Below are positions 31,323-50,693 of a stretch of 64,000 nucleotides of DNA, piece by piece. The DNA is from Roseibacillus sp. (GTDB lineage Bacteria > Verrucomicrobiota > Verrucomicrobiia > Verrucomicrobiales > Akkermansiaceae). The stretch lies in the NCBI GenBank assembly GCA_051251855.1, contig JBPOGI010000001.1, forward strand, positions 1,024,001-1,088,000, given 5' to 3'. Below the pieces are notes generated by a model, which was not told the origin of the DNA, did no database searches, and saw only the letters and a program-made list of their open reading frames with translations. Positions within the stretch are counted from its first letter, which is position 1, and every line of letters starts with the position of its first letter. The position numbers and the translations under genes are program-made.

Positions 31323-32021
31323 TTAGCTGCCAGAGCCATCGGGTGGAGGACCGCTGCCTGCTCCGCGAGCGTCTTCGGTTCCTGGCTTTTTACCGGACTT
31401 TCCTGCTTTCGGGCGACCGCCCGAGGAGCAGCCTTGTCATTGGCTGGGGATGGGAAGGCCGTAGAGTTCGGCGGGGTCGATACGTGCGAGGCGGATGGTG
31501 GCTTCGAGGTCGTCGGCGGAGGTCTTGGCGAGTTCGGGATCGGCGGCGGTTTGGGCGAGGAGCTTGTATTCTTGGCGAGCGGCTTCGATTTCGGGCTCCC
31601 ACTCGGAATCGGGGAGGCCTTCGAGCTTCATGAGGTAAGTCATGTAGTACCGCGCATTGGCGAGGGCAGCCCGGGTTTCGTCACGAAGCTGCGGGTCGGC
31701 GTTGGGGTCTTGGTCGAGGACGAGCATGAGTTCAGCGAGTTCTTCGCGGGCTTCGGGGAGCTTCTTGTTGAGCATTTTCGCTTTCGCGATTTCGAGCTCT
31801 ATGCGACGGGCAGTGGTGACCTCTTCTTTGGGAAGTTTGCCCATGGCGGCTTCCCAGCACTTAATGGCTTGAGAGTAGTCCTCGTCGGCAAGAGCGGCTT
31901 CGGCTTTGTTGATGGACCCTTGAGCCTCGTCGAGGTCGAGATGGCTTTGTCCGGGGCCGAAATGCCATGCGGCAAATGCGAGCGGGATGAGGAGCCAGAG
32001 GGTTGTCAGTGCGATTTTCAT
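31323..32021 (-). CDS. Membrane-anchored TPR-like protein with an in-frame UGA (codon 195) forming a U-x-x-C motif; candidate selenoprotein (232 aa read-through, 194 aa if UGA stops)
   Basis: ATG 32021 overlaps the upstream stop (ATGA). The frame continues ...LPIPSQ-UGA-QGCSSGGRPKAGKSGKKPGTEDARGAGSGPPPDGSGS-TAA (31323). A SECIS-like hairpin follows the UGA. Confidence 0.75.
31403..31439 (-). promoter_or_regulatory. Candidate bacterial SECIS element (UGA plus stem-loop with GGUC apical loop)
   Basis: mRNA UGA CAAGG CUGCU CC UCGGGC GGUC GCCCGA A AGCAG: 5-bp lower stem, small internal loop, 6-bp upper stem, loop G22-G23-U24-C25 counting the U of UGA as 1. Confidence 0.7.
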
Positions 32022-33019
32022 GAGTGGTTGATGGTTGTGAGTAGTCTTGGTCGCTTCCACAAAGCGGAGCCAAGATTGTTCCTTTGTGTGATTAAATAGA
32101 GAATGAGCGGCAAAGAGGCCAGCAGGAAAGACGCACATGCAAGGATGATGAGGGCATACTCGCGAAGGGTTAGTTCGACCTTTTCGGCGGTGACTTGAAG
32201 GGTGCCAAGGCTGCGCAGGACGTTGGTGGGGACGTGCTTGAGGTTGCCGTCATGATACTCGCCACCGAGGCGGTTGGCGATTTCGCGCAGGGTGGAGACG
32301 TCTTGGCGTGATTGGCGGCCGTCGATGAAAGAGCCCTTCATGGGGTCGCCGACGCCGACGACGAGGGCGCCTCCGACGGAGGGTGGCATACGTGGCATTC
32401 CAGTGGGAGGGACGGTGTCGCCGTCGGAGATGAGAACGAGGGTGGTGGAGTTGGGGAGCCAGTCCTGTGCGATTTTGGCGGCTTCCTCGAGGCCGTCGAA
32501 GAGGCGGGTTTTTCCGGTTTCAAATGCGTAGTGCATGGGGAGGTCGCCGAGGATATTGAGAAGGACTTCGCGGTCGCGGGACTCTTTGACGACGGGTTTG
32601 GCTGAACTGTAAGTCGCGACTACGGTGAAGTGCATTTTCTCGTCTGAGACGCGTTGCAGGAGAGACTTCACCAAGGCAGAGGCGCGACGGGTGCGGGAGT
32701 CGGTTCCGACTTCGCCGGCGTCTTGCAGGCGCATGGAAGGGGAGACGTCGAGGACGAGAAGAAGGTGCTCGCGGTCGGCGGGTTCGATGGTTTCGAGCTT
32801 GGAGCGATGAGCCTTGGGTGAAAGGAGGAAGAGGGTGGAGAGAGCCCAGGCGATGATGGTGAGGCAGAGAGTCCTAACAAGAGGAACAATCCACAGGAGG
32901 AAGGAAGGGGTTTCTTGGAGCAGTGACTTTACCGCCGAAACGCGCTTCCAGTGCATGACTTCGGCCGCGGCGACAAGAATCGCAACGGCGAGTGAGATGA
33001 GAATGGAGGTGGTCATCAT
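32018..33019 (-). CDS. VWA domain membrane protein (BatB-like)
   Basis: MIDAS motif LDVSPSM and later ISDGD; N- and C-terminal TM segments; TAATG overlap with the upstream VWA gene. Confidence 0.85.
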   Translation of the reverse strand: MMTTSILISLAVAILVAAAEVMHWKRVSAVKSLLQETPSFLLWIVPLVRTLCLTIIAWALSTLFLLSPKAHRSKLETIEPADREHLLLVLDVSPSMRLQDAGEVGTDSRTRRASALVKSLLQRVSDEKMHFTVVATYSSAKPVVKESRDREVLLNILGDLPMHYAFETGKTRLFDGLEEAAKIAQDWLPNSTTLVLISDGDTVPPTGMPRMPPSVGGALVVGVGDPMKGSFIDGRQSRQDVSTLREIANRLGGEYHDGNLKHVPTNVLRSLGTLQVTAEKVELTLREYALIILACASFLLASLPLILYLITQRNNLGSALWKRPRLLTTINHS

Positions 33020-33933
33020 TACCAAGGGTTGTAGCGCAAGCCGAAGAGGGTGAGAAGGTGGAGACCGATGACGGAAAAGGCGGCGAGGACAAAGGGTCTA
33101 AAGTTGTCGACGGGGTCGGGGGTGAGGCGCTTGATGGGCGCTTGTTTCATGGCGTCGATTTGTTTGAAAACAGCCTCGAGTGCTGCGGGGTCACCGGCGG
33201 AAAAGTATTGTCCTCCTGTGATTGAGGAGATGACAGACACCTCTGGAGGGGGTGCGCCTTGGGCGACATGCACTCCGTAGAGAACGATGCCGTTTTCTTT
33301 GAGCGAGTTGGCGATTTCGACATCTTTGCCGTTGTAGAGGTCGAAGGATTGTCCGTCGGTGATGAGGAGAATCATCCGGTCGCCGTCCTCGCGTGAGATG
33401 AGAACTTTTTCGCAGGCTCTCACGGCCTTACCGATTTCGGTGCCACCAAACCAGCGTGGGAGGCTTTGGGGGCGAAGAAAAGGGGGGGCGCAGCGGAAGG
33501 CGGAGACGTCGGAGGTGAGCGGAATCCAGTGTAAATAGTTGTTGCCGAAGATGGTGAGGCCAAAGGCGTCTCCCTTGCGATAGTCAATGAAGCTATTGAC
33601 CGCTTCCATGGCAGCGTCATAGCGGTCCCCGTCGCCAAAGTTGGCGGTCATGGAGCCAGAGACATCGATGCAGAATTGAATGTTGGTCATTTCCTGCGCG
33701 GTGCGTGGTTGTTCGAATTTGCGAGGGCCCGCTAAGATGACGATGGCGAGAGCGAGGATGAGAGCGGGGAGTGAACCTGCGAGGTCGAGTACCCAGGTGA
33801 GGAGGCGTCGGCGTTGATGGGGGTGATTGTCGCTGGGAACGGGAACGGGCTGGGCCTTGAAGCGATGTTGGAAGACAAGCAGTCCGATGGGGACAACAAG
33901 GAGCAACAACACGAATGGATGGGCGAAGAGCAA
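33019..33933 (-). CDS. VWA domain membrane protein (BatA-like)
   Basis: F.HP..LLLL start, LAGP, IDVSGSM MIDAS, GDAFGL.IFG, PLT.D, GGTEIG, LITDG, TGG.YF.A. Confidence 0.88.
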   Translation of the reverse strand: MLFAHPFVLLLLVVPIGLLVFQHRFKAQPVPVPSDNHPHQRRRLLTWVLDLAGSLPALILALAIVILAGPRKFEQPRTAQEMTNIQFCIDVSGSMTANFGDGDRYDAAMEAVNSFIDYRKGDAFGLTIFGNNYLHWIPLTSDVSAFRCAPPFLRPQSLPRWFGGTEIGKAVRACEKVLISREDGDRMILLITDGQSFDLYNGKDVEIANSLKENGIVLYGVHVAQGAPPPEVSVISSITGGQYFSAGDPAALEAVFKQIDAMKQAPIKRLTPDPVDNFRPFVLAAFSVIGLHLLTLFGLRYNPW

Positions 33934-33939
33934 GGTTGG

Positions 33940-34782
33940 CTAGGTGCGGTAAGGTTCGAGGAGGGTGTCGATTTCGGAGGAGGAGACCTCGCTGGCAGGG
34001 GCGTGGAGCCAATGCTCGAGCTTGCGGAGGAGGGGGGAGGCTTCGGGGTGGTCGCGCAGAAGGGCGAGAGATTTGGCGGGGGGAAGGTCGGTGACTTCGG
34101 GAACACGCTTACGCCAGTGGGCGAGGATGAGGCGCTCGAGTTGCGCTTGTTCTTCGGTGGCGAGTTGGCCTTGGGATGCTTTTTTGAGAATGGGTTCGAG
34201 ACGATCGGCGAGGGTGGGAGGAGGCACTTCGGTTTGGTGGCTTTCCTTTCTTTTGCGGCTGGAAAAGAAGAGCCAAGTGAGCCCCGCTATCCAAACAAGG
34301 CCAAGGATGAAAAGAAGAGCGCGATAGCCTCCAATGCGAGGAGCGGGTTTGGGTTGGAGGGCGGCAGGTTGCGGTAAGCCCGGAGGGAGGCCGGTGGTGA
34401 TGATGAGTGGGATAAAGTGGGATGAGGTTCCGGATTCGGTGGCGGTGGGACGAAGGTAGTCGCCGAGATTGTAGGAACCGGGGTCGAGGCCTTGCACCTC
34501 GAAGGTGTAGCGGAAGCCGTCTTGGGCAGGTTTGGTTTCGACGAGGCGAACGATGAGCGGGACTTCGCGGTCTTTGCGGGGGACGGGTTCCGTGAGTGGG
34601 CCGGTGAGATAGAGGTCTTCGAGGAGGAGGGGGAGGCCGACGCGTTGGGTGGGTGTTTCGGCGTGGAGAGGTAGGGTGCAGAAGAGCGCGAAAAGGAGAA
34701 GGAAGATGATTTTCCCGAAATCCGCCTGAAGTGGGACGGTTCGTTGATGCGGCTTGCAAAGCCACGCTCCTGTTTCTTTCAT
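33940..34782 (-). CDS. Hypothetical membrane-anchored protein of the MoxR-VWA operon
   Basis: ATGA coupling to the DUF58 gene; hydrophobic signal-like segment, beta-rich domain, TM ALLFILGLVWIAGLTWLFF, helical tail. Confidence 0.7.
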   Translation of the reverse strand: MKETGAWLCKPHQRTVPLQADFGKIIFLLLFALFCTLPLHAETPTQRVGLPLLLEDLYLTGPLTEPVPRKDREVPLIVRLVETKPAQDGFRYTFEVQGLDPGSYNLGDYLRPTATESGTSSHFIPLIITTGLPPGLPQPAALQPKPAPRIGGYRALLFILGLVWIAGLTWLFFSSRKRKESHQTEVPPPTLADRLEPILKKASQGQLATEEQAQLERLILAHWRKRVPEVTDLPPAKSLALLRDHPEASPLLRKLEHWLHAPASEVSSSEIDTLLEPYRT

Positions 34783-35627
34783 CGGGAGAGGAGGTTGCGG
34801 GATTGTAGGAAGAGTCGGAGGGAGGCGAGAAAGGGTTGGTCGGTTTTGAGGAGGAAGTGGTCTACGGAGGCGCCTTGAAGCTCGCTCACGATGTCATCGG
34901 TGGTGGTGAATTGCTGGCGTGCAGGGGCGGTGATGGTGCGGTTGCTTTCGGCATCTTTGGCTCGGAGGAATCCGGCGCCAGCGAGTCCGTCTTCGGCAGG
35001 GTCGCGCAGCAGGATGGTGACCACGTCGTGACGACCGTTGACGAGCTTGAGAGCGGGAATGGCGGAAGGGTCGTGCAGGTCGGTGAGAACGAAGATGAGG
35101 GCGCGTTGTTTGAGAGAGGGATTGAGAGCGAGGAGTTTTTCGCCGAGCTGGGTTTTTTCCACGAAATCGAAGTGCCGGAGCTGGTGCAGCCAGAGCATGA
35201 GGGTTTCGCGGGAGAGGGAGGGGGAGACTTTGAGGTCGCGAGAGCCGGCTGCTAACAAGCCGACGGGAGAAACTCGGTCGAGGCAGGCAAGGGCGAGTCC
35301 GCCGGTGATTTGAACCGCGAGTTGATATTTTGAGAGCTTGGTGGAGCTCAAGGTCATGGAGGCGGAACTATCGACCACGAACCAGACGGGGAGCTGCTTG
35401 GGAGTTTCGTATTCTTTGATGTGGGGAACGCCGGTGCGTGCGGTGACTCGCCAATCGATGGTTTTGACGGGGTCACCGGGGACGTAGGGGCGCGATTGGA
35501 CATACTCTAAACCTGAACCAAGGAAGGGACTGCGGTCGGTGCCGTAGCTGAGGGAGTCAGCCAAGCGCTTGATCGCGATCACGAATTGTCGCGAGTCAAG
35601 AGGATCGGTTTGTTGGAGTTCGGGCAT
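34779..35627 (-). CDS. DUF58 domain protein
   Basis: S.F.GSGLEY...RPY.PGDPV..IDWRVTAR...KEYE and VVDSSASM motifs; follows the MoxR gene. Confidence 0.92.
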   Translation of the reverse strand: MPELQQTDPLDSRQFVIAIKRLADSLSYGTDRSPFLGSGLEYVQSRPYVPGDPVKTIDWRVTARTGVPHIKEYETPKQLPVWFVVDSSASMTLSSTKLSKYQLAVQITGGLALACLDRVSPVGLLAAGSRDLKVSPSLSRETLMLWLHQLRHFDFVEKTQLGEKLLALNPSLKQRALIFVLTDLHDPSAIPALKLVNGRHDVVTILLRDPAEDGLAGAGFLRAKDAESNRTITAPARQQFTTTDDIVSELQGASVDHFLLKTDQPFLASLRLFLQSRNLLSR

Positions 35628-35629
35628 GG

Positions 35630-36634
35630 CTAGCTGACCGAGGCTTCGAGGATCTCATTGAGGACGCCCTTGGGAGTCTTGCCTTCGGCGAGAGCTTCGT
35701 AGGAAAGGCGGATGCGGTGGAGGCAAACGTCTTCGGCGAGGGCAAAGAGGTCTTCGGGGATGACGTAGTCGCGACCGTGGATGAGGGCGCGAGCGCGGGA
35801 GGCCTTGAGGAGAGAGATTCCTGCACGAGGAGAACAGCCGAGTTCGAGGTCGGGGTGTTGGCGAGTGCGCTCGACGACGTCGATGACGTGTTTGAGAAAG
35901 ACGTCCGAGACGTGAATGTCGTGCACGGCTTGGGTAGCGTTGACGAGGTCTTCGGTAGTTCCGACTGCGTCGCCGCCGATGAGATCGAATTCCGTTTTGG
36001 CGACTGCTCCGCCGTCTTTCTTGCTGATGCCTAGCCTCATGTTGCGACGGAGAATTTCTTCCTCTTCCTCAGGGGTGGGGTAAGTGAGGCGGTGACAAAG
36101 CATGAAACGGTCGAGCTGGGCTTCGGGAAGCTCGAAGGTGCCGGATTGCTCGATGGGGTTCTGGGTCGCAATCACGAGGAAGGGGGTGGGAAGGGAGTAG
36201 GTCTCAGCTCCGAGGGTGACCTTACGCTCTTGCATGGCCTCTAGAAGAGCACCTTGAACCTTGGGCGCGGCGCGGTTGATCTCGTCGGCGAGAAGGAGGT
36301 TTGTGAAAATGGGGCCTTTGTGGGTGCGGAAGCTGCCCGACTTTTCATCGAGAATCTCGGTTCCAACGATATCGGAGGGCAAAAGGTCGATGGTGAACTG
36401 GATGCGGCGGAAATCGAGATGAAGCGCTTTGGAGACAGTGTTAACCAGAAGAGTCTTCGCCAGCCCGGGCATTCCTTCGAGGAGAAGGTGACCCGAGGTG
36501 AGAAGGGCGATGAGAGTGCGTTCGACGACCACGTCCTGTCCGACGACAATTTCGCCAGTTCGTTCTCGGATGGATTGGAGCCACGCGGACGTGGCCTCGG
36601 ATGAAGGGTGAGGTGCGCTCATAGAAAGGGTCAT
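35630..36634 (-). CDS. MoxR family AAA+ ATPase
   Basis: HLLLEGMPGLAKT, RIQFT.DLLPSDI.G, LLADEINRA.PKVQ.ALLEAMQE, ATQNPIEQ.GT.LPEAQLDRF, GCSPRA. Confidence 0.95.
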   Translation of the reverse strand: MTLSMSAPHPSSEATSAWLQSIRERTGEIVVGQDVVVERTLIALLTSGHLLLEGMPGLAKTLLVNTVSKALHLDFRRIQFTIDLLPSDIVGTEILDEKSGSFRTHKGPIFTNLLLADEINRAAPKVQGALLEAMQERKVTLGAETYSLPTPFLVIATQNPIEQSGTFELPEAQLDRFMLCHRLTYPTPEEEEEILRRNMRLGISKKDGGAVAKTEFDLIGGDAVGTTEDLVNATQAVHDIHVSDVFLKHVIDVVERTRQHPDLELGCSPRAGISLLKASRARALIHGRDYVIPEDLFALAEDVCLHRIRLSYEALAEGKTPKGVLNEILEASVS

Positions 36635-37233
36635 TGTTCGGGAACTGGTCTACTCTGATGAAAACGAGAGAGGAGGGGAAGTTTGTTTCTTGAAGGGAAC
36701 AGTTCATTTGGTTGATGGTCCCCTGAAGTAGTTTCCACAAAAAGAAAGTTCGCCTCTCAAATTTAGATTCAAGCGAAGTGCAATTTGATGCGATCAGCGC
36801 CGGTAGTATACTCTTGGAATTCTGAAAGTTGTGACTTTTTTTTAGAATACAATTTCTAGCAAGTTGTTAATCAGGAGTTGTTGTCGCGAGGGCGGAATTT
36901 TGATTTTACTCATTTAATTAAAGCGTTTTAATTAAGCGATTTAAGTTTGAATTGCACGTGAAAGAAGCAATCAGGAAACCGGGAGTTTTTCATGATTTCG
37001 CAACAAGATTCTTAGGTCGAGTTAAGCTTCTCGAGCGTCAAGTATGTTAGAAATAAAGCCGTGGAACCCATGTTTTTAAAAGGGCCAAAAAGTTCCCCGC
37101 AAGAAGTGGTTCTAACTCTTGGCCATGTTAGAAAATCCTCCCTAAAACTTCGCTCTCTTCCGGAGAAACCGAGGCCGTGGTCAGTCGCAGTGGCGCCGAC
37201 GTTGATACTGGGAGAGACATTCAATAACGCCCC
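36635..37233. promoter_or_regulatory. AT-rich divergent promoter region between the MoxR operon and dnaA; possible oriC
   Basis: 600-bp non-coding, AT-rich; near-palindrome TTAATTAAAGCGTTTTAATTAA (36914-36935); repeated TGTTAGAAA; only one near-canonical DnaA box (gtttccaca, about 36731-36739). Confidence 0.45.
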
Positions 37234-38718
37234 ATGTCCCAACCCTCAACCTCTCAATCCGATGCTTCTTTTCCAGAAAACTTCCCCGGCGCAGCAGCTC
37301 AACCAGAACTCGAAGAAGAGTTCGTAGCCCGTCAGATCGCCGATCCTTGGGCCAAGATCGCTCCAGTATTGAAGTCCCTTGTTCACGAAAACGTTTTCAA
37401 CCGGTGGTTTGCGAATGCTGAGTTGCTGAGAGAAGATGACGGCACTTGGGTGTTAACAGTGCCAACCGATACCCATTGTCTTTGGATTGAGACTAACTTT
37501 ATGCCGGAGCTCTGCACTGCGCTGGGAACAGCGCTCGATCTCGCAGAGGCAGGACAGGTCCGGATTCGAGAGAAAAGCCTTTCAGACCAGCAAACCTCCG
37601 AACCCCATTCCGAGCCGACAGTAGTTGAGCGGGAGCTTTTCGAAGACTTGGCCTCGTCCAGCGCCGACGAAGAAGATTTCCTCAAGCGAATGAAGCGAGC
37701 TCGCCTAAATCCAGCAAACACCTTCGAGCGTTTTGTGGTCGGTGGAAGCAATGAGTTCGCCCATGCGGCATGCCTTGCGGTTGGTCAAGGCCGAGGACAG
37801 GCCTTTAACCCCCTCTTCATCCACGGTGGCTCGGGAATGGGTAAAACGCATCTTGCACAAGCCTTGGGACAGGAGTTCCTTAAGAACCAACCGAAGAAAC
37901 GAGTGGTCTATTTGACCTGTGAGCAGTTCTGCAATGAGTTCATTGATGCCGTTCAAAAGGGAAGTTTGACCCAATTCCGCAACAAATACCGTAAGGCGGA
38001 GGTTCTGATTGTGGATGACATCCAGTTTCTCAAGGGAAAGGAAAAGACGGGAGATGAGTTTTTCCACACTTTCAATGCCCTGCTTGAGCTTCAAGCACAG
38101 ATTATTTTGACCTCGGATCGCCCCGCTTCTGAGATTCAGAGCTTGGAGAATCGACTTATGACGCGGTTCGAGAGCGGTCTTACCGTCGCGCTTGAACCTC
38201 CTTCACTGGAAATGCGGGTCGCGATTCTCCAGAAAAAGATGGAGGAATGGCAGGTTCAGATTTCTCCTGAAATCCTTCACTTTATCGCTGAAAGGGTGCG
38301 CACAAGCGTGCGACGTCTGGAAGGCGCCTTGGTGCGCGTTGCGACTTTTTCGTCGCTGGGATCTGGAGGGCTCACCTTGGCGCGCGTGGAGTCTTTGCTG
38401 AAAGACATTTTTCATGAGGAAGCGAGCCACAAAGTCACCATCGACTCGATTCAGCGCACCGTTGCGGATTACTACGACTTGCGGATCGCAGACATGACAG
38501 GTCGTCGTCGTCCTAAGAAAATCGCCCATGCCCGCCAGGTAGCGATGTATTTGAGCCGTAAGTTGACCAAGAATTCGCTCATGGAGATTGGCGAGGCCTT
38601 CGGAGGTCGGGACCATGGAACCATCATTCATGCAGTGAAAAAGGTGACCACTCTGGTTGAAAGCGAGACCGACACCAAAGAAGAGGTCGATCATCTGGCC
38701 TCACGCTTGAATCGGTAA
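37234..38718 (+). CDS. dnaA: Chromosomal replication initiator protein
   Basis: LNP..TFERFVVG.SN, FNPLFIHGGSGMGKTHL, DDIQFL, EFFHTFN, RL.TRFESGL, RRLEGAL, RQVAMYL, IG..FGGRDHGT. Confidence 0.97.
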   Translation: MSQPSTSQSDASFPENFPGAAAQPELEEEFVARQIADPWAKIAPVLKSLVHENVFNRWFANAELLREDDGTWVLTVPTDTHCLWIETNFMPELCTALGTALDLAEAGQVRIREKSLSDQQTSEPHSEPTVVERELFEDLASSSADEEDFLKRMKRARLNPANTFERFVVGGSNEFAHAACLAVGQGRGQAFNPLFIHGGSGMGKTHLAQALGQEFLKNQPKKRVVYLTCEQFCNEFIDAVQKGSLTQFRNKYRKAEVLIVDDIQFLKGKEKTGDEFFHTFNALLELQAQIILTSDRPASEIQSLENRLMTRFESGLTVALEPPSLEMRVAILQKKMEEWQVQISPEILHFIAERVRTSVRRLEGALVRVATFSSLGSGGLTLARVESLLKDIFHEEASHKVTIDSIQRTVADYYDLRIADMTGRRRPKKIAHARQVAMYLSRKLTKNSLMEIGEAFGGRDHGTIIHAVKKVTTLVESETDTKEEVDHLASRLNR

Positions 38719-38852
38719 CTTCGGCTGAAAGGGCAGATCTGCTGAAAAAGTGAAGAACGACGAGTTTGGAGCGCATCGGGTCATAATTCGATAGGGGCTT
38801 GCAAAAGGTCGGGACTTCTTAGAAACCTAAGGGAGCCTTCGGGCACACCCTT

Positions 38853-39950
38853 ATGAAGTTTCGTATTGCAAAGGAAGCCTTTCTCGATGGTTTGCAGCAA
38901 GTTCAGCATGTTGTCAGCACTCGCACCACGCTGCCTATCCTCTCTAATGTTCTCATTGAAGCCAAAGATGGCGAATTGCGGCTTACCACGACCGACCTTG
39001 ATGTCGGTGTCAGTGGCAGCGTCAAAGCCGAAGTTACAAAAGAGGGTGCGACGACCCTGCCTGCCAAACGTCTGGTGAGCATCATCCGTGAGCTGCCTTC
39101 TGCCGAGATTGAGATCTCAATCGATGCCAAGAACGTTGCGAGCATTTCGAGTGGTCCTAGTTTCTTCAAGATCATTGGGCTCCCGCATGACGAGTTTCCG
39201 CCTTTGCCTGATTTCAATGATGCCAAGGAGTATAAGATTCCGCAGGCGATTTTTAAAGAAGGTCTCAAGAAGACTTCTTACGCAATTTCAACGGATGAGA
39301 CGCGCTATGTTCTCAACGGCATTTTCATCTCCTTTAAGGAAGGGAAGATGACTCTTGTTGCCACTGATGGTCGTCGTCTCGCGATGGTTGAGAACGAGTT
39401 GGAGTTTCCAGCCACACACGAGACCGAAATCATTGTTCCTACTAAGGCTATTCAAGAGCTTGCTCGCCTAAGCAGTATGGAAGGTGAAGTGCAGGTGAAG
39501 TTACAGTCAAACCAGATTTCCTTTGAGATTGGCGATAGCATCATCGTTTCCAAGTTAATTGAGGGGAACTACCCCAATTACCGTCAGGTCATTCCTGGGG
39601 AAAAGAAAGAGCGCCTTGACCTCAATCGCGAGTCGTTCTTCGAAACCGTTCGTCGTGTTTCATTACTCTCTTCGGAAAAGTCCAATTCGGTGAAACTCGT
39701 CTTCGGACCGGACACTCTCGACATCACTGCTAACTCTCCAGATATTGGTGAAGCGAAAGAGTCCATGGCGGTGAAATATTCTGGACCCGAGTTTGCGATT
39801 GCTTTCAATCCAGACTTCCTAATGGCTCCTCTCCGCGCCTTGGATGAGGATGACCTTCATCTAGATCTCATTGATGAGATGAGCCCGGGTGTTCTTCGAG
39901 CAGCAGGGAACTTCCTCTATGTTCTGATGCCCATGCGGGTGACAAACTAG
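38853..39950 (+). CDS. dnaN: DNA polymerase III beta sliding clamp
   Basis: TTLPILSNVLI, TTDLD, STDETRYVLNG, VATDGRRLA, SKLIEG.YPNY..VIP, LMPMR; directly after dnaA. Confidence 0.97.
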   Translation: MKFRIAKEAFLDGLQQVQHVVSTRTTLPILSNVLIEAKDGELRLTTTDLDVGVSGSVKAEVTKEGATTLPAKRLVSIIRELPSAEIEISIDAKNVASISSGPSFFKIIGLPHDEFPPLPDFNDAKEYKIPQAIFKEGLKKTSYAISTDETRYVLNGIFISFKEGKMTLVATDGRRLAMVENELEFPATHETEIIVPTKAIQELARLSSMEGEVQVKLQSNQISFEIGDSIIVSKLIEGNYPNYRQVIPGEKKERLDLNRESFFETVRRVSLLSSEKSNSVKLVFGPDTLDITANSPDIGEAKESMAVKYSGPEFAIAFNPDFLMAPLRALDEDDLHLDLIDEMSPGVLRAAGNFLYVLMPMRVTN

Positions 39951-39960
39951 GAGAATTCTA

Positions 39961-40115
39961 GGACTCGAACCTTTAGGTCGTCTGGCACGGCTCTCTGTTT
40001 AGGGAATCATTTTCCGCGTGCAGTCACACTGCTCACGCAGAGATTATGCTGCTCTGGGCGACAGGGCCTAATCTTCAGATGACGGCGTCCTTGAAAGGCT
40101 CGCATTCGAGGTTCC
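39961..40115 (+). ncRNA. Candidate structured RNA: ~155-nt imperfect rod-like hairpin in the dnaN/TPR convergent gap
   Basis: Nested helices ctcgaa/ttcgag, ccttt/aaagg, gtcgtctg/cagatgac, ctgt/acag, gcgtg/cacgc, gcagt/actgc; G-U pairs favour the + strand. Family not identified. Confidence 0.4.
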
Positions 40116-40117
40116 GC

Positions 40118-42502: not shown

Positions 42503-42508
42503 CGTGGG

Positions 42509-42940: not shown

Positions 42941-42961
42941 AAGTAAGAGATGGGAAAAAAG

Positions 42962-43792
42962 TTACTGGCCTTGAGGTAACACCACATCTTGTGCGCCATA
43001 CATTTCGCCAGTAGGGGCGGGCATGGGTGCTTGTTGTGGCACGGGAGCCGTGGCAGGCGTCGCTTTCAACTGAGACGTTAGCAACGAGATGATGTGGGTA
43101 GAGGCGGCTTCGAACTCGTGAAGAAGGCGATTCACACGCCCTTTGAAGAAGGAGTGGAAAACCATAGCGGTGATGCCGATAACGAGACCACTCGCAGTGG
43201 TAACCAATGCCTCCGAGACACCGGAAGCCAATTGCATGGGGAGGTTGCCAGGGCTTCCTCCTTGGGAGATGAGCATGAAGGATTTGATCATACCAATGAC
43301 GGTTCCCAAGAGCCCCAGCATGGGAGCAATGGCACCGATGTCACCGAGCCATGTGATACGCTGAGCGAGAATGCCTGATTGGCGTGAACCTTCGGACTCA
43401 GCCACTTCCTTGATTTCGGTAGCCGAGGCGGCAGGGTTTTCGGTGACGAATTGCAGGGTTTTGGATGTCAACCTCGCGACCATCTCAGAGCGGCGATGGC
43501 TATAGGAAAGAAGGCCCATGAAGTCGCGCTTGCGCAACATTGAGTCTGCGGCATTCATGAAGCGATTGGTCACTACCGTAGGACGTCGAATCGTCAACGT
43601 GTATAGAATGATGAGGATGATAGCAATGAGCGCCATGGCAGCCAAGGGAATCATCATGATGCCACCTTCGCCAAGAATCTCGATGAGAGGGACTTTGGGA
43701 AGGGCTGTGCCGCCTTCGGAGGCCTCAGCAGGGGTGTCTTGAGCCATCGTGAGACCGCTGGACAGAATCAGGAGCAGGGGAAGTGATTTCAT
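42962..43792 (-). CDS. MotA/TolQ/ExbB proton channel family protein
   Basis: L..IGAIAPMLGLLGTVIGMI..F and LA.GVSEALVTTA.GL.I; start set at ATG 43792 (MKSLPLLL). Confidence 0.92.
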   Translation of the reverse strand: MKSLPLLLILSSGLTMAQDTPAEASEGGTALPKVPLIEILGEGGIMMIPLAAMALIAIILIILYTLTIRRPTVVTNRFMNAADSMLRKRDFMGLLSYSHRRSEMVARLTSKTLQFVTENPAASATEIKEVAESEGSRQSGILAQRITWLGDIGAIAPMLGLLGTVIGMIKSFMLISQGGSPGNLPMQLASGVSEALVTTASGLVIGITAMVFHSFFKGRVNRLLHEFEAASTHIISLLTSQLKATPATAPVPQQAPMPAPTGEMYGAQDVVLPQGQ

Positions 43793-43959
43793 AAAGAAGT
43801 TCAGACCAAAGAATAGCAATTCCCAGCCCGTCTGCAAGAGCAGTGCGTGCTGCGAAGCTGACTGCGTCTTGACACTATTTCGACTGAAAAGCGTCTCTGG
43901 GTATTCAATTTGTCTGACGAGTAGCGGGTCTGTGCTATCGTTGCCTGAGAAAGCAGACA

Positions 43960-45513
43960 ATGGCGGTTGATTTGAAAGAACAGATGCGCACGGTGCCGCA
44001 CAAACCGGGGGTCTACCTCATGAAGGACCGATTGGGCTCAATCATCTACGTTGGTAAGGCGAGAGATTTGAAAAAACGGCTTTCGAGCTACTTCATGCCT
44101 TCAAAAAAAATGCGAGGTGACCTCAAGACACGGGCTCTCATCGACTCCATTTGTGATTTTGAAATTCATGTCGTGCGCAATGAACCCGAGTCGTTACTCC
44201 TAGAGGGCAAGCTCATCAAACAGTATCGTCCGCGCTACAACGTGGCCTTTCGTGATGACAAACGTTTTCTCTTGGTGAGAATCGACTTGGAGGATCCTTG
44301 GCCCAAATTCACCACCACGCGTCTCAAGAAGGAAGATGGCGCGCGCTACTTTGGTCCGTTTGCCCATTCGGGTGCGTTGCGTTCGACCTTGGCTTGGTTG
44401 CATCGTGAGTTTGGATTGCGGACCTGCCAGCCCAAGGTTCCTGGGGAGAAAGATTACAAGCACTGCAACGCGGATGTGATTCGAAACTGCACCGCACCCT
44501 GTGTGGGTAAAATTGAGCGTGCTGCCTATTTGACTCGAGCTGAAGAAGCGTGCTCTCTCCTAGAAGGCAAAGGGAGACGGGAGCGTCTGAAGGGATTGCG
44601 AATTGAGATGGAAGCTGCGGCAGTGAGGATGGATTTTGAGAGAGCAGCCAAGCTGCGTGATGTGATGCAGAACTTGGAAAAAACGCTGAGCCCGACACGA
44701 CAGTTTACGCGGGGTCGTGGAGTGCCGACGACAGTCAAACCGACCGAGGACTTGGAGGAATTGGGACGCTTAATGAGTTTGCCCGGGCCTCCTGAGATTA
44801 TGGAGTGCTTCGATATTTCGAACATCTCGGACACGCACATTGTGGCCAGCATGGTGCGCTTTCGCGGGGGCGCTCCAGACAATCAGAATTATCGCCGATA
44901 TCGGATCAAGACGGTGTCGGGCCAGGATGACTTTGCGAGCATGGCCGAAGTGGTCCGGCGGCGGTATGCGCGGATTTTGGCGGAAAACGGAGAGGCGAAT
45001 CCTGAGATTGCGGAGGCGAGTCAGGAACGACCTTTGGAGGCCTTGCGGCGTCTGGCGAGGGAAGGGAAGAGTCCAATTACGATTCCAGATCTGGTGATTG
45101 TGGATGGTGGAAAAGGCCAGCTCTCTTCAGCGGTAACGGAACTGGAGAGATTGGGGTTGGGAGAATTGACAATTGTGGGATTGGCTAAGCAGCGGGAAGA
45201 GATTTTCTTTCCGGGAGAAAGCGAGCCCCTTTTGCTTTCGCATGATACAGGTGCGCTGAAATTGATGCAGCGAATTCGTGACGAAGCGCATCGATTTGCC
45301 AATGGGTATAACGAATTGTTATTAAGGAAGCGAATGAAGGAGAGTCTACTCGATGAGTGCCCTGGGATTTCGCCGAGACGGAAAGCGGCTTTATTGAAGA
45401 AATTTGGTAGTGTCGCACGGTTACGAGAGTCCACCGCCGAAGAAATAGCGACCTTACCTGGAATTTCCGAGAAGGCCGCTGAGGGGATTTTAGAGTGGCT
45501 GGATAATCAGTAA
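43960..45513 (+). CDS. uvrC: Excinuclease ABC subunit C
   Basis: PGVYLMKD...IIYVGKA..L..R (GIY-YIG), UVR coiled coil FERAAKLRD, ECFDISN, DDFASM, VDGGKGQL, RDEAHRFA, C-terminal HhH. Confidence 0.96.
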   Translation: MAVDLKEQMRTVPHKPGVYLMKDRLGSIIYVGKARDLKKRLSSYFMPSKKMRGDLKTRALIDSICDFEIHVVRNEPESLLLEGKLIKQYRPRYNVAFRDDKRFLLVRIDLEDPWPKFTTTRLKKEDGARYFGPFAHSGALRSTLAWLHREFGLRTCQPKVPGEKDYKHCNADVIRNCTAPCVGKIERAAYLTRAEEACSLLEGKGRRERLKGLRIEMEAAAVRMDFERAAKLRDVMQNLEKTLSPTRQFTRGRGVPTTVKPTEDLEELGRLMSLPGPPEIMECFDISNISDTHIVASMVRFRGGAPDNQNYRRYRIKTVSGQDDFASMAEVVRRRYARILAENGEANPEIAEASQERPLEALRRLAREGKSPITIPDLVIVDGGKGQLSSAVTELERLGLGELTIVGLAKQREEIFFPGESEPLLLSHDTGALKLMQRIRDEAHRFANGYNELLLRKRMKESLLDECPGISPRRKAALLKKFGSVARLRESTAEEIATLPGISEKAAEGILEWLDNQ

Positions 45514-45525
45514 AGTAAGTCACCA

Positions 45526-47643
45526 CTACTCAAGCGACTCGCCGGCTAACTTATCGCTCACCAATTTAATGAGATAGTTAGGAGTCAGTACTTCAGGCGT
45601 GATGTTCGGAACCTTCTTTTCCGGAGAGTAGAGCACATTTACAGGGATGGCTGAGCGACCAAGCTTGGTAAGTTCGGCATCGATTTCTTCGTTAGTCGTA
45701 GTTTTATCGGCCTTGAGGAAAAGAACGTTCCGGTTATTCATTAAGTCGACGACCTCCTGAGTATAAGCGTTCTTTTTGTTCACTTGGCAGGTGAGGCACC
45801 ATTTAGCAGTGAAGTCCACGTAGACAGGACGGCCCTCGGCAAGAGCTTCTTGCTCTTTCTCTTTTGTCCATTTCCCCCATTCGATAGTGACTACTTTCGA
45901 CTCGTCAATTGCTTGCCCTGGCTTGGCAAGAACAAAGCCAGCAAGGAAGAGCGCAAGCGTCACGCCGCGAGCAATCCACTTGGTTTTAGCTTTACGAATC
46001 GGGGTGGTCCAACGACCCCAAACCCATCCTGCTGCCGCAATCAAGGAGAGTCCAATCATCACGAAGAGTCCTTTTTGTCCGTAGTCTTGTTCGAAAACTT
46101 GCGCTGAATAAACCCAAAGCAGGTAACCAACGGTAGCAAACAGGAGGAAGGACATCCCTTGCTTGAAGGATTCCATCCAAGCTCCAGGGCGTGGGAGTTT
46201 TCTCACAAGGCCAGGGAAAGCTGAAAGGGTCAAGTAGGGAAGCGATAGTCCGGCAGCCATCACTGTGAAAGCCATAAAGAACCAGAAGGTTGGCAGGGCA
46301 ACCGCAGCACCGAGAGCGGCACCCAAGAAAGGAGCTGAACAAGGGGTCGCGACTACTGTTGCGAGAACGCCGGAGAAGAATGAACCTCCGAGGCCGTCTT
46401 TGCGGGTCAGATTGGAGCCGACTCCGGTTGCCCCAACTCCGATTTCGAAGACCCCATACATGTTCATGGCCAACAACAGCATCACGATGATGAGGGTGAA
46501 CATGACGTAGGGGTTCTCGAGTTGGCCGCCCCAGTTCTTGATACCTCCTAGAAGCATGATGAGAGTAAGCAGCCAAAAGCTTGCAAAGACGCCACCAGCA
46601 AAGGCGAAGCCATGCATCATGATCTTCTTACGGTCATGACCCGCTTGGTCAACGAAACCCATGATTTTGATTCCAATCACGGGGAAGACACAAGGCATGA
46701 GATTGAGAATCAGTCCGCCGACAAACATTCCAGTGAGGATGGGAAAGAGACTTGAGAAACTGACAGGAGTCTTTTTTTCCTCGGGAGTTCCAATCGAAGT
46801 TTCCACGAGATAGGATTGAGTGCCATCCGTTAGAATTCCTGTAAGTTGGTCTAACACAGGTCCCGGATCAGCGAACTCGTTCCCTTGGTTACGGGGGAGG
46901 TTGAGGGTGATAGTGTCGCCTTCCATGGTCGCGACGTGGGGGGCTTGCACGCTGACTTGGCCATCTTCGTCGAAAAATTTGAGACCGTCGGCATTGAGGT
47001 TTCCAGCAGGAGAAACGGTGACTGTGATGATGTTACTGACTTCGGTAGCCTTGATGTTGAAGTCCTTGGCTTCTGTGGGGTAGTGCGCGCGTGCTTTCTG
47101 GAATTCGGCAGTAAGAGAAGGGTCTGGAGATGATGTTGCGGTGATAGGTAATTTGAGAAATTGTTGTGTCTTCTCAGGGACGCAGCCTTTGTCGTCACAG
47201 ATTTGCCAACGAGAATTCAGGGTGATTTCGGCTGTTCCACCAGCGGTGAGATTTGCTGGGGGGGTGATTTTATAGAGATGGTGAACCGTCCCTTCGTAGC
47301 CGATTGTTTTGAAGCCAAAGGAGCTACTGAGGTGAGGGGTGGGCCATCCCAAGTATTCTGCAGTGAATCCTTCAGGGAGGGTCCACTCGGTGCTGAGGAC
47401 TTCACCAATGAGGCCCGTGTTGAGGTAGTAGCTATGCCAGCCTTCAGGATGGGTGAGCTTAAGAGCGACGGTGAAGGGTTGACCAGATGCGATAGAGGAG
47501 ACTTCAGAAAGGAGGCTAGCCTGGGTTTCCTCTTTCTTAGGTTTGCTCTTGGCACTGGGGAGACTGAAGGGATCGAAGTCATCAGCGGAGAGGAATCCAG
47601 TAAAAGGAATGAGGCTGAAAAGAAGAAGGAAGAGAATTTTCAT
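45526..47643 (-). CDS. Protein-disulfide reductase DsbD family (N-terminal Ig-like, TM, thioredoxin domains)
   Basis: WQICDDKGCVP, LNLMPCVFPV, ATPCSAPFLG, DFTAKWCLTCQVN. Confidence 0.9.
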   Translation of the reverse strand: MKILFLLLFSLIPFTGFLSADDFDPFSLPSAKSKPKKEETQASLLSEVSSIASGQPFTVALKLTHPEGWHSYYLNTGLIGEVLSTEWTLPEGFTAEYLGWPTPHLSSSFGFKTIGYEGTVHHLYKITPPANLTAGGTAEITLNSRWQICDDKGCVPEKTQQFLKLPITATSSPDPSLTAEFQKARAHYPTEAKDFNIKATEVSNIITVTVSPAGNLNADGLKFFDEDGQVSVQAPHVATMEGDTITLNLPRNQGNEFADPGPVLDQLTGILTDGTQSYLVETSIGTPEEKKTPVSFSSLFPILTGMFVGGLILNLMPCVFPVIGIKIMGFVDQAGHDRKKIMMHGFAFAGGVFASFWLLTLIMLLGGIKNWGGQLENPYVMFTLIIVMLLLAMNMYGVFEIGVGATGVGSNLTRKDGLGGSFFSGVLATVVATPCSAPFLGAALGAAVALPTFWFFMAFTVMAAGLSLPYLTLSAFPGLVRKLPRPGAWMESFKQGMSFLLFATVGYLLWVYSAQVFEQDYGQKGLFVMIGLSLIAAAGWVWGRWTTPIRKAKTKWIARGVTLALFLAGFVLAKPGQAIDESKVVTIEWGKWTKEKEQEALAEGRPVYVDFTAKWCLTCQVNKKNAYTQEVVDLMNNRNVLFLKADKTTTNEEIDAELTKLGRSAIPVNVLYSPEKKVPNITPEVLTPNYLIKLVSDKLAGESLE

Positions 47644-47752
47644 GAAGTGATTGATTACTACTACGATGAATCGAGAGCGATTTCATTCCCTGATTTCTGC
47701 ATTATCTTGCCATCGAGTTAGGAAAAAGTAGGTCTGGCTCAGATGTTCCCAT

Positions 47753-47779
47753 AAAAAAGGCCCGCCGAAGCGAGCCTTT
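47753..47779 (-). terminator. Intrinsic terminator after the glycine-zipper gene
   Basis: Minus strand AAAGGCTCGC-TTCG-GCGGGCC followed by a T run (cUUCGg tetraloop). Confidence 0.8.
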
Positions 47780-47805
47780 CTAAAAGAGAGAGTTGAGGAA
47801 GGGTC

Positions 47806-48111
47806 CTAGTATTGAGGATAAACCTGCTGGGATTGTCCGTATTGCTGTTGCTGCTGAACGGTATAGCCTCCGCCTTGCTGGAGGTCTTTGTTATTCCCAA
47901 CCGCAGCGCCACCGGCGCCACCAAGAAGTCCGCCAATAGCAGCACCACGGGCACCGTTGCCGTCACCGACGTTGTTACCGATGATTCCACCGAGAATAGC
48001 TCCGCCGGCAGCTCCGACGGCAGCATCACGTTGCAGGTTGTTTTGAGGAGCGCAGTTGCTCAAAGCGATTGCGGCGACGACGGTCAGGGAGGCAGTAATG
48101 GTCTGTTTCAT
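47806..48111 (-). CDS. Glycine-zipper lipoprotein
   Basis: Lipobox-like LSNC; GAAGGAILGGIIG...GAAIGGLLGGAGGAAVG; followed by a terminator. Confidence 0.85.
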   Translation of the reverse strand: MKQTITASLTVVAAIALSNCAPQNNLQRDAAVGAAGGAILGGIIGNNVGDGNGARGAAIGGLLGGAGGAAVGNNKDLQQGGGYTVQQQQQYGQSQQVYPQY

Positions 48112-48187
48112 AATAAATTTGAATTGTTTAAGGAATGTTAATCAAATACAGCTCGGCGTCAATTGCTTTTCGTGCCTGCTGTCTGGA

Positions 48188-49231
48188 TTATAAAACAGCT
48201 TTGGTTGGGAGTTTATTCAAGATTTCCTGAATCAATTTGGGGCCTTTGTAAATGAAGCCCGTGTAGAGCTGTAAAAGAGTGGCTCCGGCTTCCAGCTTTG
48301 CGAGGGCATCTTCAGCGGTCATGATACCACCGACTCCAATGATTGGAACTGATGAACCTAACTCGGAGTGAAAGGCCGCGATCGTTTTGGTCGAGAGTTC
48401 GGTTTCAGGGGCACCTGAAAGTCCTCCTTGTTCGGCGGCATATCGATGACCTTCCACTTTCTTGCGCTCGATGGTGGTATTGGTCGCAACGAGAGCGTCG
48501 AGGCCCCCGTCTCGAAAAACTTGGGCGAGCTCCTTGATATGATTCGCGTGAAGGTCGGGGGCCACTTTGAAAGCGATGGGAACGTTTCGGCTTGTGGTGC
48601 TCCTTAACTTTTCGCGCTCTTGTTGAAGCGTATCCAAGAGCCGAGCCGTCGAATCTGCAGCTTGGAGGTCCCGCAGACCTGGGGTATTAGGCGACGACAA
48701 GTTGACAGTGATATAGTCGGCCACAGGGTAGGCCGCACGGAAGGCGATGAGGTAATCGTCGACGGCCTTTTCGTTGGGTGTGGCCTTATTTTTCCCAATA
48801 TTGAAGCCGACTGGGCCTTGGAAGGTTCGATGATTGCGGACATTGGCGACTCCGATATCGATACCGGGGTTATTGAATCCCATGCGATTAATGAGTGCTT
48901 GGTGTTCAGGTAGACGGAAGAGTCGTGGTTGGGGATTTCCGGATTGGGGCCGAGGAGTGATGGTTCCGATTTCGATAAAGGAGAAACCGAGACGACCAAA
49001 AGCATCGATAGTGTTGCCTTCTTTATCAAGACCTGCAGCGAGTCCGACTGGATGGGCGAAGGTGAGGCCCATGCATTCCACCGAGTCGGTAGAAGGTAGT
49101 TTGGGAGCCATGGCTCCGAGCAGGCCTGACTTTTCAGCGATCCGAAGACTCGATAGCGAAATGTCATGAGCCTTCTCTGCGTCGAGGGTGAAGAGAAAAG
49201 ATTTGAGGAGAGGGTAGGTCGTCGTGAGCAC
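48188..49231 (-). CDS. pyrD: Quinone-dependent dihydroorotate dehydrogenase (class 2)
   Basis: GLAAGLDK, EIGTITPRPQ.GNP.PRLFR, INRMGFNN, NIGKNK, NLSSPNTPGLR, KVAPDL, GGLSG, IIGVGGI. Confidence 0.96.
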   Translation of the reverse strand: MLTTTYPLLKSFLFTLDAEKAHDISLSSLRIAEKSGLLGAMAPKLPSTDSVECMGLTFAHPVGLAAGLDKEGNTIDAFGRLGFSFIEIGTITPRPQSGNPQPRLFRLPEHQALINRMGFNNPGIDIGVANVRNHRTFQGPVGFNIGKNKATPNEKAVDDYLIAFRAAYPVADYITVNLSSPNTPGLRDLQAADSTARLLDTLQQEREKLRSTTSRNVPIAFKVAPDLHANHIKELAQVFRDGGLDALVATNTTIERKKVEGHRYAAEQGGLSGAPETELSTKTIAAFHSELGSSVPIIGVGGIMTAEDALAKLEAGATLLQLYTGFIYKGPKLIQEILNKLPTKAVL

Positions 49232-49301
49232 GTGGCAAAAGCTTCAACAATATTGTCCCAAAAATCCAACCTCGTTTCGAAGAGCTGAGTCAGTAGAAGC
49301 C

Positions 49302-50693
49302 CTACTTGAAGAACTCGCGAAGAGCTTTCTTTTCGTCGGGATGCAGATCAGGAGCGACCTTCCAGATGAGTTCGCCGCCTTCGCCCAAATCTTCGACGGT
49401 TCCTCCGCCGCGCACGCCCACTTTACGCTCATCGACGCGGTGCTCGCCGTCTTGTAATTCGAGAAGGTCTCCGGGAAGAGTGTTTGAGAGGTCGCGCGAC
49501 TCGAGCCCCTCAAGGTCGCCCGCATCAAGTTCATCTCCCTTTTGCCCCAGCACGCCTGGTGCGGTTCCAGGCCCTCGACCGAGGCCTCCGTTGCCAGCAC
49601 CCTCTTGGCCTTCACCATCTTGTCCTTGACCCTGACCAGGGCCTTGTCCGTTGCCTTGTCATCCAGGGCCTCCTTCCTGCATGAGTTCGTCGAGCCACTC
49701 ATCGCCCTGTCCCTGACCTTCGCCGGGCTCTCCTTCGCCCCCTGCGTTTTGCATTTGCTGGGCTTGCTTACGCATGTTTTCGCGTAGCTGATCCATCTGC
49801 TCTTGAGAGAGATTTCCCAGCTTCTTGGGATCCATGCCACCGAGTTGTTTGAGCAACTCTTTATTCGGTTTCATTGCTCCGTTGTTCATCTTCTCAAGCG
49901 ACTGGTCAAACTCATCAAGAAGGCGTTCACGCGTTTCGGGGTTCATGCTTTCGCTATGATTTTGGAGAGCATTGAGGGCGCGCTCGGCTTTGCGTATGTC
50001 GCGTTCCAGTTCTTTGAGCTGCTGCTCGTGAGCCTCCTTAAGGCTATCGGTGGCTTCGAGCGAGGAATGGTCAAACCACTCTTCTTTCGGTTGCTCGCGG
50101 AGCTCTTCAACTTTCTCTTCAATTTCGTCGAGATAGTCCTCGTCAATGATGTCGTCCTTACGAAGCTCATCGATACTGGCCTGAAGTGCTTGCCGGTTGG
50201 CCGGCTCTTCGGGTGGGGCCGCGTTGGGATCGTTTTTAGCTGAAATCGGAAGAAAAAATGCAGCCGAAAGGAGCAGTAAGGTGGCGAGAGGAGGGATGAG
50301 AAGTCGAGGCCAATTCCAGCTCGTGCCATCGCTGGTCTCTTCGGCGACTTGGGGCCAAGGAGCGACCCCTTGTCTAGCTGCGGTGAGAGAGTTGTTTAAC
50401 GCCATAGCAGACTCGATGCGGACCAAGGCATTTTCCGTCGAAGTGAAATGTCGGCGAGCTACGAACCAGGCGATCAAGATCACAATGGCTAGGATACCAC
50501 AGGCCACTGCGAGGGAGGGCATCCAAGGAAAGGCGGCCCACTCTCGGCGAGCGAGCATGACGAGGCCTGCTCCCACGAGACCAGCGATGAGAAGGGGGAG
50601 AGAGAGCTTTTCCAAAAACCACGCCCAATTGAAACGCCGAGCCGTCGCCTTGGCGATTGCGAGCCAGCGTGATTGGACAGAACCTTCAGCCAT
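49302..50693 (-). CDS. Hypothetical membrane/coiled-coil protein with an in-frame UGA (codon 345) in a Gly/Gln-rich linker; 463 aa if read through (recoding candidate or nonsense mutation)
   Basis: ORFs 49659..50693 and 49302..49553 share a frame. Reading through gives ...QEGGPG-UGA-QGNGQGPGQGQGQDGEGQEGAGNGGLGRGPGTAPGVLG...LHPDEKKALREFFK-TAG with no other stop. Confidence 0.65.
49628..49661 (-). promoter_or_regulatory. Candidate SECIS-like hairpin with GGUC loop downstream of the in-frame UGA
   Basis: mRNA UGA CAAGGCAACGGACAA GGCCCU GGUC AGGGUC: 6-bp stem with one G-U pair, loop at nt 25-28; no lower stem seen. Confidence 0.5.

Follow-up and report, generated by a model that had tools for sequence, protein, structure and literature searches.

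Two in-frame UGA codons of a marine Roseibacillus genome are predicted to encode selenocysteine in membrane-anchored proteins tied to MoxR gene clusters

Two genes of Roseibacillus sp. that appear to be interrupted by UGA are, quite probably, intact genes for selenoproteins. Both lie on the minus strand of the window, by which is meant the whole stretch of DNA analysed (64,000 nucleotides, positions 1,024,001 to 1,088,000 of contig JBPOGI010000001.1, assembly GCA_051251855.1), and positions given without a contig are those of the window. The best explanation is that the SelB and tRNA-Sec of the genome would decode both UGAs as selenocysteine (Sec, U in protein motifs) by means of ordinary in-frame bacterial selenocysteine insertion sequence (SECIS) hairpins. 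SelB-GTP carrying Sec-tRNA would bind a loop of the form R-G-U-Y and deliver Sec at the UGA, a mechanism that is established for bacterial SECIS elements generally. Two membrane-anchored selenoproteins absent from existing lists are thereby predicted. In each, a flexible and likely periplasmic tether would carry the Sec, which would act as a redox or metal ligand for envelope complexes of the MoxR/vWA (Bat-like) type. Recoding is favoured because the decoding machinery is present, Sec alternates with Cys at the first site, the hairpins appear to be under selection and the protein downstream of both UGAs is conserved.

The UGA of site 1 occupies 31439-31437 and that of site 2 49661-49659, each followed directly by CAAGGC. 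The two UGAs, their identical 9-mer and a GGUC tetraloop on a stem of six base pairs, which the original prediction had described, are all found in the sequence. Hairpin 1 (31403-31431, minus strand) has an apical stem at 31424-31409, UCGGGC/GCCCGA (31424-31419 with 31414-31409), whose GGUC loop (31418-31415, starting at nucleotide 22) falls in codons for S-G-G-R-P, and a lower stem pairing 31431-31427 with 31407-31403. Hairpin 2 (49628-49643, minus strand) consists of the stem GGCCCU/AGGGUC with one G-U pair (49643-49638 with 49633-49628) and a GGUC loop (49637-49634) starting at nucleotide 25, in the codons CCU GGU CAG GGU (P-G-Q-G). The bacterial SECIS model places a G within the first two positions of the loop, commonly with G or U after it, at 16-37 nucleotides from the UGA and with an energy below -7.5 kcal/mol (PMC13188914). 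Both hairpins satisfy it, with GG at the start of their loops and folding energies of -20.8 and -10.3 kcal/mol; for the first, the energy corresponds to a z score of -2.9 and is equalled by none of 200 shuffles. Ordinary TGA stops of the window do lack such a context, as had been noted earlier, none of the 10 other TGA-ending called genes being among the matches to the GGUC hairpin.

The apparatus on which the original prediction hinged is present. The genome encodes tRNA-Sec (63.9 bits, cut-off 47), selA, selB and selD, all over cut-off, and selD itself carries an in-frame TGA followed by a hairpin capped by GGUCU. UGA is otherwise an ordinary stop, at which about 730 called genes terminate. 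The genome-wide comparison of TGA with the other stops that had been asked for was made on 3456 genes called with the analysis's own codon model, the strict motif being a GGUC tetraloop on a stem of at least 6 base pairs, with a loop start 16-40 nucleotides from the first base of the stop. It occurs 3' of 3/747 TGA gene ends and of none of 1360 TAA and 1349 TAG ends, and the three hits comprise both sites of the window plus a YlbF gene containing a Sec/Cys pair. When stops are selected solely by coding-like sequence on both sides, which makes the comparison non-circular, a hairpin of -5.5 kcal/mol or lower with an N-G-U loop follows 19/50 TGA stops against 3/49 TAG and 3/49 TAA stops. Twenty-five candidate Sec sites were chosen by eye, partly on their hairpins, so that their hairpin counts are partly circular; 11 of them belong to published families (SelD, FdhA, ArsC, MsrA, SelW, Prx, VPGU-thioredoxin, two thioredoxins, a TlpA-like protein and DUF3179). 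The suspicion of a hidden set of selenoproteins is thus borne out by some 25 candidate sites, while its restriction to membrane-tethered proteins falls, the candidates including SelD, FdhA, MiaB, YlbF and many proteins of thioredoxin fold.

Site 1 is almost certainly read as Sec. Gene 1 (31323-32021, minus strand) would encode 232 residues, comprising an N-terminal transmembrane anchor (predicted at residues 1-21), a TPR-like helical body, the motif U195-Q-G-C198 (UxxC) and a Gly/Lys/Pro tail. The databases store this protein as 194 residues, cut at the UGA (31437-31439), in line with the earlier suspicion, for both genes, of missed annotation. In the best 120 of 460 homologues, 59 end exactly before the site-1 column, 60 have Cys in it and one (P0074) has W; among 150 more distant representatives, Cys falls no more than three residues from the site in 70, and 42, some of them fragments, end at or before it. 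At the DNA level, 40/64 loci have TGA and 24/64 TGC. Cys is found in homologues whose genomes lack SelB: within one sample of 151 genomes, SelB is present in 14/14 genomes with TGA and 0/10 with Cys, a count of relatives that are not independent samples and that omits three distant homologues without an aligned motif (G325, G259, G283) and two weak matches. Some homologues of gene 1 lack the Cys motif altogether; this, like the relatedness of the genomes compared, weighs against the Sec reading.

The hairpin of site 1 bears the marks of selection on the nucleotide sequence. Across the 40 TGA genes, its third codon positions are 79-100% fixed, versus 33-75% in other fourfold codons. Cys forms of the protein read CxxC(C)SGKC or CxCxSGKC, and Sec forms UQGCxSGGRP; in the Sec forms, the last Cys has given way to hairpin-forming codons. 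In Sec-using lineages, U would thus have replaced the first Cys, and the ancestral S-G-K-C would have been rewritten to S-G-G-R-P, building the hairpin at the cost of the last Cys. Forms with a second UGA (UxxU or UQGCU) occur at loci L226, L232 and L233, all SelB-positive, and there the GGUC hairpin has moved downstream on a different stem.

Site 2 is very probably decoded as Sec as well. Gene 2 (49302-50693, minus strand) would encode 463 residues with three predicted transmembrane segments (residues 26-50, 52-84 and 129-153), a helical stalk, a Gly/Gln linker in which U345 (codon 49659-49661) lies inside G-P-G-U-Q-G, and a conserved C-terminal domain of 91 residues; the databases annotate 344 residues. 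The layout proposed earlier for both proteins, a flexible Gly-rich tail after a helical body anchored by N-terminal membrane segments, stands for gene 1, with one segment and a disordered tail, and takes for gene 2 the form of three segments, a stalk and a Gly/Gln linker. The gene-2 family occurs in 106/151 family genomes, and a metagenome scan recovered one locus. TGA is found at site 2 in 6/9 genus genomes, all SelB-positive and each with a (C/U)CUGGUCAGG hairpin at nucleotide 25; G271 has two UGAs, and its hairpin lies 25 nucleotides from the second. These six genomes share one column at 60-85% protein identity, 18 database proteins end at that column (cut at W+12 or W+13), and the codons of hairpin 2 appear in none of the 12 other PGQG stretches of called genes. 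On metagenome contig L162, UGA and hairpin occur twice with identical 25-nucleotide spacing, and doubled UGAs are also present in L061. No ATG lies downstream of the site-2 UGA. Differences over the 91 codons of the C-terminal domain are mostly synonymous (for example, 41 synonymous vs 15 non-synonymous), which indicates purifying selection.

Several observations weigh against Sec at site 2. By energy alone, hairpin 2 is weak and unremarkable (z score -1.5, with 18 of 200 shuffles equally good). Genus members without the UGA have Glu, Gln, Gly or Asp at the site, never Cys, and a relative 87% identical has Glu; none of nine full-length genus proteins has Cys in or before the linker. Outside the genus, 91 homologues comprise 54 with CxxC about 25 residues upstream, 8 with a linker Cys and 26 with neither, in a linker that aligns poorly; the eight linker Cys lie at offsets +9 to +28, against +12 for U, and none in the aligned column. 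Of the 401 genomes sampled from the phylum, 66 carry the gene-2 family, with TGA in that of the window only. A quick version of the tree, in which five rows were skipped for want of the anchor motif, has a genus clade without CxxC and with U and non-U forms interleaved, which suggests that the UGA was lost repeatedly within the genus. In favour of Sec, the three genus genomes without it (G226, G245, G212) keep SelB and are exactly those with Cys in MiaB. Besides SelB they retain Sec-SelD, and with Cys in YlbF as well as in MiaB and the UGA of site 2 missing, their selenoproteome appears to have shrunk in a coordinated way. One genome of another genus (G294, SelB-positive) has a UGA of its own near the CxxC position. 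If site 2 is Sec, the genus would have dispensed with the upstream CxxC of most relatives, and many of its members would have, some 25 residues beyond that position, one Sec that they can do without.

The signal common to the two sites is the R-G-U-Y loop 16-37 nucleotides after the UGA, together with a bias for A immediately before it. The loops of the 25 candidate sites, a partly circular count, are GGUC in 12, AGUU in five, CGUG in two and AGUC in one, five having none by a simple test; in the SelD genes of 25 family genomes, the loop starts at nucleotide 36 in 24 and alternates between AGUY and GGUY. Because the loops of both sets vary between GGUY and AGUY, the consensus of the lineage is R-G-U-Y, as judged from these sequences, and it lies within the published bacterial SECIS model. 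That GGUC might be the only loop in use, or one peculiar to the lineage, is ruled out by the AGUU, CGUG and AGUC loops and by the switching in SelD. As for the lineage-specific SECIS consensus proposed earlier, the two hairpins keep their standing as SECIS elements, and GGUC becomes the commonest form of a loop that fits the general model.

The 9-mer UGA-CAA-GGC, which had been taken for a shared recoding signature, does not survive. It occurs 37 times in the genome; CAAGGC follows only 2/25 candidate Sec UGAs, both in the window, where about 0.12 pairs sharing a hexamer are expected by chance among 22 non-paralogous sites; and the 9-mer is present in 10/35 classed site-1 orthologues and 2/6 site-2 genes of the genus. 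These counts exclude it as a recoding signal. CAA-GGC encodes Gln-Gly in two Gly/Gln-rich tails, and its sharing by both sites is likely a coincidence.

The bias for A directly 5' of Sec-UGA (GGA-UGA, CAA-UGA) is seen in several families. In the genome of the window, the Gly codons preceding Sec-UGA are GGA in 9/9 cases, against 140/1060 before Cys codons. GGA precedes the site in 11/11 UGA forms and 0/16 Cys forms of YlbF, and the UGA of SelD in 19/25 genes, against 199/715 of other Gly codons. At site 1, the preceding Gln codon is CAA in 37/39 cases, compared with 57% genome-wide. U directly after Sec-UGA is rare (1/25, against 173/747 TGA gene ends). A strict rule is contradicted by MiaB, with GGG in 11/17 UGA forms and GGA in its three Cys forms, by the 12/25 candidate sites that carry another base before UGA, and by the fair frequency of GGA before terminal TGA (17/44, a count that takes in some Sec sites). 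Slower action of release factor or better pairing of tRNA-Sec are guesses at the cause. A literature search found no paper on the base preceding UGA.

Gene 1 belongs to an operon on the minus strand that resembles the Bat operons. It begins with a MoxR AAA+ ATPase (35630-36634; Pfam AAA_3 and AAA_lid_2), followed by a DUF58 gene (34779-35627), a membrane protein of 280 residues that the Pfam search assigns to no family (33940-34782), a BatA-like vWA protein (33019-33933; NCBIfam BatA_Lepto, E 1e-19, below cut-off) and a second, weakly BatB-like vWA protein (32018-33025), whose stop overlaps the start of gene 1 (ATGA). Downstream of gene 1, a protein of 1239 residues holds the BatD position (27562-31281) and is modelled as a helical solenoid with beta-rich C-terminal domains and a C-terminal transmembrane segment. 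This gene adjoins gene 1 in 59/62 loci, and among the 36 gene-1 loci longer than 12 kb, MoxR is present in 28 and both vWA genes in 30. The order MoxR, DUF58, membrane protein, vWA, vWA, TPR-like protein and large protein, as well as the membrane anchors, resemble those of a Bat operon, and by this gene order gene 1 occupies the BatC slot of a MoxR-DUF58-vWA operon. The Bat gene order used for this placement goes in part beyond what PMC3557215 states. The likeness has its limits: the BatC and BatD models are unmatched here, no Bat model matches gene 1 or the 1239-residue gene, BatA and BatB scores fall far below cut-off (70 bits against 380 for BatA), and the available part of PMC3557215 says nothing of Sec/Cys tails on Bat proteins. 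Foldseek gave only low-TM solenoid matches for the 1239-residue protein, with no clear fold match, and when the gene-1 body (residues 24-194) was modelled in complex with residues of this neighbour, the score was 0.00, which is evidence neither way.

The gene-2 family also lies within 1.5 kb of MoxR in 19/54 loci, a link common to both families that was missed earlier. Counting against this association, gene 2 is detached from MoxR in the present genus; contig C6 carries the matching MoxR, which shares 79% identity with the MoxR of L169. UniRef names two homologues of gene 2 (P0211, P0398) as DUF4175, and we take its arrangement of membrane segments, stalk and Gly-rich region to be similar to that of the membrane-anchored coiled-coil proteins of the DUF4175 / TIGR02302 kind. 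Pfam DUF4175 is unmatched in gene 2, and in P0124, P0177 and P0211 at E 0.01. Between both sites, dnaA and dnaN (37234-39950, plus strand) indicate that the replication origin is probably nearby. At 47748-47785 and 34735-34774, stretches of 30-40 nucleotides are common to other contigs and break assemblies; they are probably small dispersed repeats.

What the Sec residues do is a matter of graded likelihood. For gene 1, the chances are about even that its UxxC motif makes it the arm by which a Bat-like complex carries out thiol/selenol redox chemistry. The AlphaFold model combines a transmembrane helix with a TPR-like stack of helices, and the tail is disordered from Sec onwards (about residue 196); Pfam TPR is detected in homologues P0058 and P0112 and not in gene 1 itself, and Foldseek returned generic TPR matches only, the best at E 1e-3 and none at E 0.001 or better. 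Both tails are predicted to be periplasmic from the pattern of transmembrane segments and by analogy with a Borrelia Bat-like protein, whose vWA domain is described as periplasmic in the accessible part of PMC5700661. According to the available part of PMC3557215, Bat proteins were proposed to repair oxidised or damaged periplasmic proteins or to export reducing power, a later test left their function elusive, and deletion of the Bat genes of Leptospira biflexa did not impair survival of oxidative stress, a result unfavourable to a redox arm. In the main rival reading, the Sec/Cys motifs serve as ligands for a metal (Zn, Cu or an Fe-S cluster) which the MoxR/vWA system loads or passes along, and not as a disulfide redox pair. 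Such a role would suit the three or four Cys of the Cys forms of gene 1 (CxxCCxxxC, CxCxxxxC), the lack of a thioredoxin fold in its structure model and the postulate, in the same partial source, that MoxR loads metal into the MIDAS sites of Bat proteins (PMC3557215). It fits poorly with Sec forms that keep only UxxC or UxxU, giving up the last Cys for the hairpin, and with a motif predicted to be disordered, and it is rated possible, on balance unlikely.

For gene 2, the patchy occurrence of Sec invites two further readings, each of them doubtful. According to the first, site 2 is a selenium valve: when selenium is available, read-through adds the conserved C-terminal domain, when it is lacking, translation stops after residue 344, and the residue inserted hardly matters. 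The replacement of U within the genus by Glu, Gln, Gly or Asp and never by Cys, the position of the site in a length-variable linker just before a conserved domain, and the doubled UGAs of L061 and L162 would all agree with a valve. A chemical role is indicated instead by the 65/91 relatives outside the genus that have CxxC or another Cys at the stalk-linker junction and by the UGA of G294 near the CxxC position; nor is any selenium-related partner known. The second, which is given no better prospects, makes the Sec of site 2 a nearly neutral passenger, in which the PGQG codons happened to form a SECIS in a selenium-rich marine lineage, so that an upstream UGA was tolerated and drifted in and out. 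The interleaving of U and non-U forms on the quick tree, the lack of a Cys counterpart, the low-complexity context and the loss in genomes with fewer Sec sites speak for drift. The retention of one column in six genomes of 60-85% identity and among 18 database proteins, together with hairpin codons that are fixed there and not used elsewhere, speaks against it, as does the expectation that a useless UGA, costing read-through efficiency, would be lost fast.

That the UGAs are plain stops, errors, pseudogene lesions or the product of a genome-wide reassignment of UGA to Trp or Gly is most improbable: databases do end both proteins at the UGA, homologue P0074 is translated with W at the site, and an ATG overlaps each UGA in another frame, opening open reading frames of about 16 codons, whereas conservation of the UGAs extends over many genomes, TGA terminates about 730 genes, purifying selection acts on the downstream domains, and no variant appears in the contigs of four sequencing runs (possibly the source data themselves). 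Reassignment, assembly error and pseudogene are excluded on these grounds.

Other candidates emerged beside the two sites. A YlbF/YmcA-family gene (G000:C1:1159560-1159967, minus strand; L121) ends in GGGG-U-G-C-stop and has a SECIS that lies in the 3' untranslated region; TGA is present in 21/136 matching family genomes, all with SelB, and the stems are wholly different around a constant GGUC or AGUY loop. MiaB (G000:C11:190581-192023, minus strand; L129) has UGA at the Cys of TYG-C-QMN, with TGA in 17/20 loci and TGC in three. Three ASPIC/UnbV FG-GAP paralogues (G000:C6:415417-426857, plus strand; L112-L114) each contain D-L-U-S-V-Y-W and a hairpin. Five candidates with an in-frame UGA have no Pfam family (G000 C8:391946-393088, C1:1391804-1392739, C10:234048-234560, C7:209450-210106 and C10:209658-210275), the respective contexts being PAGET-U, PGVF-U, WGG-U-GGC, TT-U-GPC and ET-U-EDC; the last is divergent from another MoxR gene. 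An open reading frame of 1247 codons (G000:C6:448513-454524, minus strand; L136) stays in frame for 756 codons beyond a TGA, with no hairpin by the simple test. In addition, the genome encodes nine MoxR paralogues and two copies of tRNA-Trp(CCA), and ten tRNA genes are arrayed within 1.5 kb at G000:C10:114076-115599.

The recoding mechanism itself is known. Its features here are those of bacterial SelB-dependent recoding, namely a hairpin right after the UGA and a small loop that opens with G followed by G/U, with the usual spacing and energy; the differences are the narrowing of the loop to R-G-U-Y in this bacterial family and the A bias before UGA. Gene 1, with UxxC and many Cys homologues, satisfies the usual criterion for the predicted UxxC selenoproteins among the 119 families of Table 1 of PMC13188914; it differs from them by its TPR-like body, a motif on a disordered tail and the absence of a thioredoxin fold. 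No TPR, MoxR/vWA or DUF4175-like family figures in that 119-family table, neither gene matches a Pfam family or an NCBIfam selenoprotein model, and a literature search found no paper on either family, which the BSepDB family table or PMC12013261 could still list. The best named homologues of both genes come from Roseibacillus, order Verrucomicrobiales. It is very likely that these are two unlisted families of predicted membrane-anchored selenoproteins tied to MoxR gene clusters in marine Verrucomicrobia.

A wider scenario, held tentatively and with rather less than even odds, is that marine Verrucomicrobiales recruit Sec into accessory subunits of MoxR/vWA systems, and that at site 2 a cassette of UGA and hairpin arose in the linker, could be duplicated, replaced a CxxC lost elsewhere in the protein and was dropped rather than reverted to Cys. 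According to the deep-Sep authors, in the accessible part of PMC12013277, every selenoprotein known seems to have homologues with Cys, and the filter they apply requires homologues with Cys or known Sec. Site 2 would likely be dropped by this filter and may illustrate another route by which Sec sites arise; if the reading is true, gene 2 would encode a bacterial selenoprotein lacking any homologue with Cys at the Sec position, which may be a switch that depends on selenium. Two families would be added to the catalogue of bacterial selenoproteins and dozens of truncated database proteins corrected, and the combination of A-UGA and R-G-U-Y would offer a simple filter for the large hidden selenoproteome of the lineage. 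The conserved UxxC/CxxC in the BatC slot makes the redox proposal for Bat proteins testable by one point mutant, and site 1 would, if truly Sec, provide a single-atom handle on the redox role proposed for Bat-type operons.

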